Of a DNA stretch of 55,594 nt, positions 13,497 to 39,493 are shown piece after piece (the first letter of the stretch is position 1; each line of letters starts with the position of its first letter). The DNA lies in NCBI GenBank assembly GCA_964362365.1, contig CAYIEF010000004.1:1-55594 (forward strand). The letters run 5' to 3'. A program made the translations under genes and the position numbers. The notes below the pieces were generated by a model that worked only from the letters and a program-made list of their open reading frames with translations, was not told the DNA's origin and did no database searches. This stretch comes from an uncultured Methanosarcinales archaeon. GTDB lineage: Archaea > Nanobdellota > Nanobdellia > Woesearchaeales > GW2011-AR9.

Positions 13497-13614
13497 GCCC
13501 TTATGGCTCAACGGTAGAGCGACTGCTTCGTATATCGCAACTAGCGTTGCGGAACTTTCGACGCTAGTGCGTCAAAAGAGCAGTAGGTTGAGGGTTCAAA
13601 TCCCTCTAAGGGCT
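13497..13614 (+). tRNA. tRNA-Thr(CGU) with 46-nt intron at 37/38 (13533-13578)
   Basis: GCCCTTA/TAAGGGC acceptor, GCTC/GAGC D stem, ACTGC/GCAGT anticodon stem, GAGGG-TTCAAAT-CCCTC T arm, U73; relaxed BHB (one mismatch in central helix). Confidence 0.9.
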
Positions 13615-28340: not shown

Positions 28341-29159
28341 TTACCCAATAAAATAGAAATTTTTGTTATAATTCAAGGCTAGATAAATAGTCACAGCAAT
28401 GAAATCTGCTGCCAGTCCAACTCCAATTCCTTGATTTTCTTTTTTCCGAAGTACTGCATTATAAGCAGCAACCAGGCGCTGAGAAAATTTCCCTTTAGAT
28501 TGTAAAAAGGTATTGTAGGAAATCTTGATGTCCGGAAAATTCTTTAAAAACTGTTTGTTGTGAATGACTCCGGTTGGATGACCGCCGTTACTCTCCCGCT
28601 CAAATTCCTGTTTATAAAAGTCGAAAACTGAATCAACGTCATGTCTTTGTACTTCATACTGTTTACCTCTATGGCTGAAGGAAATATCTCTTGCAGCTTC
28701 CTTCCCTTCTAAAAACGATACCACATCTTCTTGGTCGGTTTCTTTTATGACTTTGCCTGCGGCCGTAAGCAATTTATCTACACTGTCTTTAGAAGATGGA
28801 TCGTACAGAATATGCGCGGCGACGATAGGAAAGGAGAATTCTAATATCCCTAAATTTATTTGTCCTCCCTCTCGGTTAGCCTTACTAAGAATAACTGCTT
28901 CTTTAAAGAATTTATATATGCCGGATGGATTCCCATTTCTCTGAAGATGCTCGGCTAGATGATAATATGCAGGATAAACGTTTACACCTCCAGCGATAAA
29001 CATCTCTAAGGTATTTTTAGGAGTGTCTTCATGTCTGGTAACACAGCCAGGTTTATCTGAAAGGGGCTCTAAAGCACAAGCCATAGCTATGTTTCTTGCT
29101 TCTTTTTCTGGAAGTGAAAGCGCGTTATACGCTGCTTCAACTTGTTGTAGAATATCCAT
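28341..29159 (-). CDS. CitG/MdcB-like triphosphoribosyl-dephospho-CoA synthase homolog
   Basis: ALEPLSDKPGCVTR, INLGILEFSFP, C-terminal GLAADFIAV; start moved to MDILQ because the ORF-track 5' extension overlaps tRNA-Trp. Confidence 0.65.
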   Translation of the reverse strand: MDILQQVEAAYNALSLPEKEARNIAMACALEPLSDKPGCVTRHEDTPKNTLEMFIAGGVNVYPAYYHLAEHLQRNGNPSGIYKFFKEAVILSKANREGGQINLGILEFSFPIVAAHILYDPSSKDSVDKLLTAAGKVIKETDQEDVVSFLEGKEAARDISFSHRGKQYEVQRHDVDSVFDFYKQEFERESNGGHPTGVIHNKQFLKNFPDIKISYNTFLQSKGKFSQRLVAAYNAVLRKKENQGIGVGLAADFIAVTIYLALNYNKNFYFIG

Positions 29160-29205
29160 TTTTATGAAAGTAAGTCTATTCTTTAAAAATTTTTTCTGAA
29201 AAGAG

Positions 29206-29376
29206 TGGGGCTGCTGGGATTTGAATTCCTGAGCAACAAACATCAGCTTGTCACTTCCCAGATCCGAAGCTGGCTCCAAGGAAAGTTTTGTCACTGCCTA
29301 TTGGCTCAACCCTCCATGCTGGAGGCTCCTATTTTTGGCGGTAGTTTATACCTCTGCCAGGTTATACTACAGCCCC
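29206..29376 (-). tRNA. tRNA-Trp(CCA) with three introns (about 22/23: 29353-29334; 37/38: 29318-29272; 53/54: 29256-29226)
   Basis: Removing 20+47+31 nt gives 73-nt GGGGCTG TA GTAT AACCTGGCA GAAT A GGAGC CTCCAGA GCTTC GGAT CTGGG TTCAAAT CCCAG CAGCCCC A; each intron has a 4-bp central helix and 3-nt bulges. Confidence 0.88.
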
Positions 29377-29424
29377 GCCAAATCCATAAAATGACGTTCT
29401 TTTATTAAGATTTTCGTTTTGGAA

Positions 29425-38975: not shown

Positions 38976-39493
38976 TCTTGACTGGTTCCGAAATAAAAAA
39001 AGAAGTGCTAGATCGAAGAATTCACATTTTACCTTTCGATGAAAAAAATATCAACCCTAATAGTTATAATTTTAGATTAGGAAAGGTTTTGAAGATATAT
39101 CGAGAGAAAATTCTTGATGCAGCTGCGCCTATGGATTTTGAAGAGATAATTATTCCTGAAGAAGGTTACATCCTTCAACAAAATCAACTTTATTTGGGAC
39201 ATACTATAGAAGAGATGGGCTCTGATTTTTTTGTTCCTATCATGCAGGCGCGCAGTTCCATCGGCAGATTAGGATTGTACATTTATCTCAACTCTGGCTT
39301 AGGTGATTTAGGCTTCAAAAAACAATGGACTTTAGAACTGCATGCTATTCATCCCTTGAAAGTTTATCCCGGGATGAAAATTGGACAGATGCTCTTCTGG
39401 AAACCACTAGGAGAAATAAAACTCTATCAAGGGAAATATAAAGATTCTCAAGGTCCAGAAGTCAGCCAGATTTGGAAAGATTTTGAACAGTAG
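38972..39493 (+). CDS. dcd: dCTP deaminase
   Basis: MILTGSEI, NPNSYNFRLG, ARSSIGRLGL, GDLGFKKQWTLE, IGQMLF, YQGKY. Confidence 0.92.
   Translation: MILTGSEIKKEVLDRRIHILPFDEKNINPNSYNFRLGKVLKIYREKILDAAAPMDFEEIIIPEEGYILQQNQLYLGHTIEEMGSDFFVPIMQARSSIGRLGLYIYLNSGLGDLGFKKQWTLELHAIHPLKVYPGMKIGQMLFWKPLGEIKLYQGKYKDSQGPEVSQIWKDFEQ

Follow-up and report, generated by a model that had tools for sequence, protein, structure and literature searches.

A tRNA-Trp(CCA) gene apparently interrupted by three BHB introns in a Woesearchaeal genome, with a conserved K-turn and guide-like element in its anticodon-loop intron

Introduction

From which gene does a Woesearchaeal (DPANN) archaeon read its UGG codons when standard scanners report no tRNA-Trp in its genome, and if that gene is broken up by several introns, some at unusual sites, what removes them? 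The question is raised by a locus in a 55,594-nucleotide stretch of DNA (the window, meaning the whole stretch that was analyzed), in which an initial annotation proposed a hidden tRNA-Trp with BHB introns in the D arm, the anticodon loop, and the T arm. The window belongs to a groundwater MAG of 1.26 Mb (39% G+C, 101 contigs, 95% complete).

Multiple-intron tRNA genes of Thermoproteales were reportedly described by Sugahara et al. in 2008, and both such genes and DPANN alpha4 EndAs that occur with disrupted tRNA genes are already in the literature. In the Thermoproteales, multiple-intron tRNA genes contain up to three BHB introns (PMC4033280). Kaneta et al. 2018 examined DPANN alpha4-type EndAs with disrupted tRNA genes, one Woesearchaeota genome being already in their sample (PMC5829648), and an epsilon2 EndA is known from ARMAN-2 (PMC3239211, PMC3488258). 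The alpha4 and alpha'2 forms of EndA cut only strict BHB motifs, and broad specificity goes with the loops L1-L3. The same literature already ties DPANN alpha4 EndA to a higher number of disrupted tRNA genes and records that standard prediction recovers DPANN tRNA sets only in part (PMC5829648, PMC3488258). It is against this background that the structure, the distribution, and the likely processing of the locus have to be judged.

Results

The gene occupies 171 nt of the minus strand (29206-29376), from G1 (29376) to the discriminator A73 (29206); read from 29376 to 29206, it starts with GGGGCUG and ends with CAGCCCCA, and a CCA tail is not encoded at its end. Introns were parsed by the rule that a 4-bp helix lies between two 3-nt bulges and that the cut falls after the second bulge base (arrows below). 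A manual parse and an independent script gave identical introns, and the lengths, helices, and bulges originally described were all reproduced on the minus strand. Exon 1 (29354-29376; 23 nt, tRNA positions 1-22) contributes the 5' strands of the acceptor and D stems, the D loop, and G22. Intron 1 (29334-29353; 20 nt) follows at 22/23, with the central helix UGGC/GCCA and the bulges AG↓A and AA↓A. Exon 2 (29319-29333; positions 23-37) supplies the 3' strand of the D stem, the 5' strand of the anticodon stem, and the loop sequence CUCCAG with the anticodon CCA (29322-29320). Intron 2 (29272-29318; 47 nt) occupies the canonical 37/38 site and has the central helix CUCC/GGAG and the bulges AG↓C and CC↓A. 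Exon 3 (29257-29271; positions 38-53) runs from A38 through the 3' strand of the anticodon stem and a 4-nt variable region to the 5' strand of the T stem, where intron 3 (29226-29256; 31 nt) interrupts it from exon 4 at 53/54, with UCUG/CAGG as central helix and GG↓A and AA↓U as bulges. Exon 4 (29206-29225; positions 54-73) holds the T loop UUCAAAU, the 3' strands of the T and acceptor stems, and A73.

Joined together, the four exons make a 73-nt product that ARAGORN recognizes as tRNA-Trp(cca), the cloverleaf that the annotation had predicted. When introns 1 and 3 alone are removed, the same program detects a tRNA-Trp with a 47-nt canonical intron. The identity features of tRNA-Trp are present: a 7-nt loop, CUCCAGA, with U33 and a purine at 37, and the A73 discriminator. 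The D stem of the spliced tRNA is weak (G.U, U-A, A.A, U.G). In the RNAfold structure of the precursor, the acceptor stem is formed, as are the helices of intron 1 and of intron 3 (z = -2.95). A TATA-like element, TTAATAAAAG (29399-29408, minus strand), lies 23-32 nt upstream of G1 as a putative promoter, and the motif stands at the same distance upstream of the tRNA-Trp gene in the relatives compared. Just past A73, a run of four T in CUCUUUUC (29200-29203, minus strand) is a likely archaeal terminator. An identical sequence, its three introns included, is also found among the contigs of another, second metagenome study; these and other metagenome contigs contain the locus and intron-less variants from relatives, and none shows exon joints in the strain itself. 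A search for the locus in RNA runs found none that contains it.

Two ORFs overlap the locus, as had been noticed before. The 317-aa frame at 28341-29294 (minus strand) is over-extended, and its real start is probably an ATG near 29162 (MDILQQ...); the other lies at 29205-29408 on the plus strand. A PspC-domain gene (29425-29628, minus strand) lies just upstream of the tRNA gene, and PspC-like coding sequence also adjoins the gene in several relatives.

The three BHB motifs are of unequal quality. Counted as central, inner, and outer pairs, they score 4/4/0 for intron 1, 4/3/4 for intron 2, and 4/4/2 for intron 3, so that all three have the full set of four central pairs between 3-nt bulges. 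By the strict hBHBh' criterion, intron 2 has 4/4 pairs in h and 3/4 in h', and intron 3 has 2 bp in h and 8 bp in h'; both motifs appear close to strict. Intron 1, with 0/4 pairs in h, takes the relaxed HBh' form: its inner hairpin is GGUA-UAAAC-UACC, the outer helix is absent, and the 3' site falls within a 6x3 internal loop.

The helices were also compared among genomes. In an alignment of nine genomes, 98.4% of the cells in the helices of intron 3 are paired and five pairs have changed on both sides, and in a control in which the partners were slid by 1-3 columns pairing falls to 30-50%. The central helix of this intron has switched from U-A to A-U in G039, in step with the T stem sequence. 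For intron 1, a U-A pair of the central helix in the genome itself corresponds to C-G in its genus relatives, a compensatory change. The BHB model of intron 2 is 86.6% paired across 13 orthologues from the family; the minimum-energy fold of this intron is a 6-bp helix and not the 4-bp BHB, the BHB-competent fold being less stable by ~7 kcal/mol.

The relatives also provide natural intron-less alleles. BLAST with the gene found orthologues in 20 of 40 relatives, and spliced alignments show all three introns in G015, G014, and G008, absence of intron 3 in G013, and the 37/38 intron only, with introns 1 and 3 missing, in G010, G007, G016, and G022. Exons 1 and 2 are contiguous in the last four and in G019. 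The intron-less alleles read GGYAG↓AAUNGG and CUGGG↓UUCAAAU, which are exactly the predicted junctions. ARAGORN identifies the one-intron orthologues of G010, G007, and G016 as tRNA-Trp and misfolds that of G022 as tRNA-Val(gac). In G024, a reading of the sequence places at 22/23 an intron with a different inner hairpin.

Over a wider range, 301 genomes of the order were searched with a covariance model that combines the anticodon arm with intron 2, and the tRNA-Trp gene was found in 43, including most genomes of the family. All genes recovered have the 37/38 intron. Extra introns occur in the order at about 15/16, 22/23, 24/25, 53/54, 56/57, and 59/60, and three-intron tRNA-Trp genes are found in several genera. 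One orthologue (G110; locus L115, contig C61, about 39095-39161 plus flanks) spans 208 nt and has four introns, at 24/25, 37/38, 53/54, and 59/60; a BHB can be drawn at each, and ARAGORN accepts the spliced product as tRNA-Trp. The archaeal maximum in the reviews that we found is three introns per tRNA (PMC4033280). Judged from these distributions, introns 1 and 3 are freely gained and lost within the family, and intron 2 is universal in the order.

The expectation that standard scanners would miss such a gene proved correct. The locus escaped ARAGORN without and with its intron mode and Rfam both at the gathering score and at E<=10; at the latter threshold, the only match around it is to an lncRNA and was rejected as spurious. 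Genome-wide, the 19 tRNAs reported by ARAGORN in intron mode and the 14 Rfam matches above the cut-off plus 7 weaker ones include no other Trp/CCA tRNA. We also made a census of our own, an acceptor-anchored search in which the D, anticodon, and T units may each contain one intron that passes a BHB check. It returned 28 loci genome-wide; ARAGORN accepted the spliced products of 25 and rejected those of the other three, which all have very long introns and are for this reason probably false. The sole CCA candidate was the locus at 29376-29206, with the same three introns. Thus, no intron-free tRNA-Trp was found elsewhere in this 95%-complete assembly by ARAGORN, Rfam, or the census.

According to the same census, two or three introns interrupt many of the genome's other tRNA genes, non-canonical sites included. 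Hidden genes with two or three introns were found for Pro(GGG), Pro(UGG), Thr(UGU), Glu(UUC), Arg(CCU), Ser(GCU), and Leu(GAG), and a CAU tRNA on contig C41 has three introns of ~20 nt. The tRNA set of the genome is still incomplete after the census. Within the window, the sole Rfam tRNA match is a tRNA-Thr(CGU) at 13497-13614 (plus strand), which ARAGORN misses by default; its canonical intron is 46 nt long and contains no K-turn.

Intron-less alleles in relatives, covariation, and the genome census therefore support the reading of the locus as a real tRNA-Trp gene with BHB introns at 22/23, 37/38, and 53/54, and they agree with the hand parse. Relying on sequence comparison throughout, we assign a probability of about 0.9 to the statement that this is a functional, and apparently the only, tRNA-Trp(CCA) gene of this archaeon and that its three BHB introns are spliced out.

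It was also suggested originally that introns 2 and 3 share sequence and might reflect intron transposition. The shared sequence, AGTGACAA, is indeed in both, and 1.7% of shuffles do as well. Among 10 genomes compared, two have a shared 8-mer that reaches nominal significance, that of G017 being a different one (2.2%), and the eight others show nothing. Within intron 3, the shared segment AGUGACAA is part of the covarying inner helix. A K-turn considered for intron 3 was rejected, since the segment is base-paired there and UGA is not conserved. A common origin of introns 2 and 3 is thus unproven, and the evidence for transposition between them is weak. Elsewhere in the genome, homologous introns do occur in different tRNA genes. 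One family comprises introns in genes for Leu, Arg, Val, and Ser tRNAs (C10 13321-13511, C13 22947-23170, C27 12240-12396, and C46 4868-5092), and a second joins a tRNA-Ile and an Arg tRNA gene (C5 33023-33184 and C68 1807-1969). The introns of both families are GC-rich, structured, and 84-88 nt long, and they occupy the same T-loop site (after GTTCRAA) in six different tRNA genes. This looks like transposition between tRNA genes, and a pattern of this kind is what marks the intron transposition reported from Thermoproteales (PMC4033280).

As regards the splicing machinery, the genome encodes RtcB and an EndA of 204 aa with the N-terminal and catalytic EndA domains (PF01974, PF02778). An assembly break divides the EndA gene between the start of C101 and the end of C86; the two contig ends share ~55 nt, which permits an in-frame join. 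Among solved structures, the best match to the protein is the M. jannaschii homotetramer 1a79 (E 2e-35). From query residue 56 onward, the alignment runs without a gap through the C-terminal catalytic domain and its catalytic loop, and the two gaps that do occur, of a single residue each, are both in the N-terminal domain. Compared with N. equitans NEQ205, the protein has no counterpart of the 6-residue NEQ-specific loop next to the catalytic His. The length of the catalytic loop is invariant in 70 Woesearchaeal homologues (YDRG[VI]KPGEDHA[KR]W), and the EndA has no CSL (L1), ASL (L2), or NEQ-type (L3) loop. Neither Pfam models nor a family HMM (E<0.1) find a second EndA subunit gene in the genome, so that in place of the two subunit genes or three-unit fusion that are the hallmark of broad specificity there is one alpha-type gene. 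From this single gene we infer a quaternary form that is presumably alpha4.

The annotation had foreseen a relaxed EndA, and this expectation is borne out in part. Some relaxed activity is required at the 3' site of intron 1, since that site has no outer helix. The enzyme itself is alpha4-like in sequence, and no known sequence feature of EndA accounts for the activity that intron 1 would need. It is a matter of speculation whether the Lys-rich N-terminal tail of ~30 aa, which is common to the relatives, is a candidate.

Intron 2 contains two further elements. A C'/D'-like K-turn, UUGA-GCC-AAUA-GGC-AGU-GA-CAA, can be drawn at 29288-29309 (minus strand). Its non-bulged strand consists of NNGA and the C-stem, and its bulged strand of the C-stem, a 3-nt bulge, and GA, which is the internal C'/D' arrangement. 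Of 40 Woesearchaeales tRNA-Trp introns, 36 fit the consensus NUGA-hairpin-RRUGA-NN. The C-stem is 100% paired, and the pair next to the sheared G.A, formed by the first D' base and the sixth C' base, covaries as A-U (12), U-A (10), and C-G (5). We consider it likely that the K-turn is a real, selected L7Ae site. Upstream of it, at 29312-29316 (minus strand), is UGGAG, the perfect complement of anticodon-loop positions 32-36, which stands 2 nt 5' of the D'-like box. Paired in this way, C34 would face the fifth nucleotide before D', in keeping with the N+5 rule of box C/D guides. The 36 sequences that could be parsed, from the 40 introns examined, have UGGAG (31) or UGGAA (5), in every case with the 2-nt spacing. 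RNAalifold of four three-intron genes predicts the CUCCA/UGGAG hairpin instead of the BHB, and by single-sequence energies the two folds lie <=2 kcal/mol apart.

A related module is present in tRNA-Leu(CAA). In the genome itself, this gene (C24 6822-6982, plus strand) has two anticodon-arm introns, at 31/32 and 37/38, and the latter contains a guide-NN-AUGA-hairpin-GAUGA module as in tRNA-Trp. ARAGORN miscalls the gene as Leu(gag). In three relatives (L179-L181), the tRNA-Leu(CAA) intron reads UUGAG-NN-AUGA, a perfect complement of the CUCAA loop. With UUGAG in tRNA-Leu(CAA) and UGGAG in tRNA-Trp, the element therefore follows the anticodon.

A full box C/D guide was not found in intron 2: there is no RUGAUGA near the 5' splice site, and a terminal box C/box D K-turn was tried and rejected because no GA dinucleotide lies there in register.

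Discussion

The locus appears to supply the tRNA-Trp that was missing from this genome. In the order of events that we propose, the gene would be transcribed from its own TATA-like promoter into a precursor of ~171 nt. EndA would cleave the three BHB motifs, in the D arm (22/23), the anticodon loop (37/38), and at the border of T stem and loop (53/54). RtcB would then ligate the four exons into the 73-nt cloverleaf, and CCA would be added later.

Two other readings of the locus have to be set against this one. In principle, it could be a decaying tRNA-Trp pseudogene, the working Trp tRNA being encoded in the unassembled 5% of the genome. An assembly in 101 contigs leaves room for such a gene, and the weak D stem, with the A12-A23 mismatch to which the annotation had drawn attention, could be taken as a mark of decay. 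The mismatch is real, but it also occurs in the uninterrupted D arms (GUAU...GAAU) of G007, G016, G019, and G022, including orthologues that ARAGORN accepts, and is therefore a trait of the lineage and not a sign of decay; the genus relatives have U12-A23 at this position. Moreover, a pseudogene would hardly be expected to show compensatory changes in its intron helices, to lie beside the same PspC gene with a promoter-like motif kept in genus relatives, or to be the one such tRNA-Trp gene, as the model search found it to be, in each relative genome. We regard decay as very improbable. Still less probable, in our judgment, is that the gene is genuine but that the insert in its D arm is cut at other junctions or is retained. 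The script did give a second census solution for this insert, an 18-nt intron with a 75-nt product and a BHB score of 3/3/3, and a run of A at the 3' junction leaves the cut site ambiguous by sequence alone. However, orthologues that have no insert read GGCAGAAUAGG or GGUAGAAUGGG, as the 20-nt solution predicts, and this solution has a perfect 4-bp central helix and a perfect 4-bp inner helix, whereas the 75-nt product has no D loop with G18-G19. A functional gene with introns of 20, 47, and 31 nt is thus the reading on which the rest of this discussion is based.

The role of intron 2 beyond splicing is less clear. The box C/D guide in the pre-tRNA-Trp intron of Euryarchaeota was reportedly described by Clouet d'Orval in 2001 and Singh in 2004, and its D' guide is presumably the one assigned to C34. 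The euryarchaeal intron has a median length of 65 nt, and within it lies a box C/D RNA that directs the formation of Cm34 and Um39 (PMC4090602); on this precedent, intron 2 can be read as a shortened relative in which only a C'/D' K-turn and the C34 element were kept. The likenesses are the same tRNA, the same intron site, a K-turn, an anticodon-loop complement that places C34, and a guide fold that competes with the BHB fold. The differences are a length of 47 nt, shorter as the annotation had pointed out, a single internal K-turn, no box C that we could find, no guide for position 39 (which is G39 here), and loss of the D-like box in the genome itself. A pattern search for euryarchaeal tRNA-Trp introns returned only chance matches in bacterial or coding DNA. 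As a tentative proposal, intron 2 may be a minimal guide without box C, built on one K-turn, that methylates C34, the same module being re-tuned in tRNA-Leu(CAA). The anticodon-loop CUCCA of the precursor would pair first with UGGAG of intron 2, L7Ae, Nop5, and fibrillarin would then 2'-O-methylate C34, and the RNA would afterwards refold into the BHB for splicing.

It is also quite conceivable that the K-turn has nothing to do with methylation and is either an L7Ae-bound aid to BHB folding or a functionless remnant from a time when the intron was a box C/D guide. Besides the missing box C, the copy in the genome itself has UUGG in place of a D box, its GGAG making a perfect BHB. The duplex with the anticodon loop would be only 5-6 bp, and the spacer from C' to the D-like box is 8-10 nt instead of 12. 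In G004, G006, and G039 the K-turn has been lost and the gene retained, and a pattern search of the genome found no canonical C/D sRNA. The 41-nt intron of a tRNA-Cys(GCA) gene (C68 4594-4707, plus strand) has a K-turn-like hairpin, AUGA-GC...GC-GAUGA, whose upstream element is not complementary to the anticodon loop. Against a role unrelated to methylation stand the 2-nt spacing, which places C34 at N+5 and is constant across 36 of the 40 introns, and the change from UGGAG to UUGAG that matches the anticodon loop of tRNA-Leu(CAA). In addition, 12 of 13 sequences have GAAG as the 3' central strand of the BHB, so that most relatives keep a strand that creates a CUGA box despite a C34.A mismatch in the BHB helix. 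Fibrillarin and Nop5, as well as L7Ae-family proteins, are encoded in the genome. We hold C34 guiding to be a possible, somewhat doubtful function of the module, and we regard the selected L7Ae site itself as considerably firmer.

In several respects the gene is like those of the Thermoproteales: up to three BHB introns per gene, non-canonical sites in the D arm and T arm, gain and loss of introns between close relatives, and invisibility to standard scanners. It differs in its host, which belongs to the Woesearchaeales of the DPANN and not to the Crenarchaeota, and in the splicing enzyme, a single alpha-type EndA here versus an (alpha-beta)2 enzyme with a Crenarchaea-specific loop. With the DPANN archaea of Kaneta et al. 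and with ARMAN-2, this organism shares a small genome, many non-canonical or multiple introns, and a tRNA set that is incomplete under standard prediction. Kaneta et al. link the trend to the L3 (NEQ-type) loop; in contrast, our EndA and its 70 Woesearchaeal homologues have no 6-residue NEQ insert, and their catalytic loop matches that of M. jannaschii EndA in length. Two points may go beyond what is known. One is that the intron repertoire apparently does not fit an alpha4-type EndA that lacks the loops; the other is the module of K-turn and guide-like element that is conserved in intron 2.

In general, the locus and the census show that standard counts of tRNA genes fall far short in Woesearchaeales MAGs; here, only 14 pass the Rfam cut-off. 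The open question of EndA specificity is sharpened, in that non-canonical and partly relaxed BHB introns occur beside a single alpha4-like enzyme without the three published loops. Moreover, one orthologous gene with one to four introns offers a clean natural series of presence and absence in which to study intron gain and loss. The module of intron 2 is a simple, testable system for cis-acting methylation with one K-turn. If the proposed function were true, the module would be for DPANN what the guide in the tRNA-Trp intron is for Euryarchaeota, and it would form a half-mer box C/D RNP that occurs in nature. The lineage that uses this half-mer guide would also be one in which the only EndA, of alpha4 type, cuts relaxed BHB motifs without a known specificity loop.
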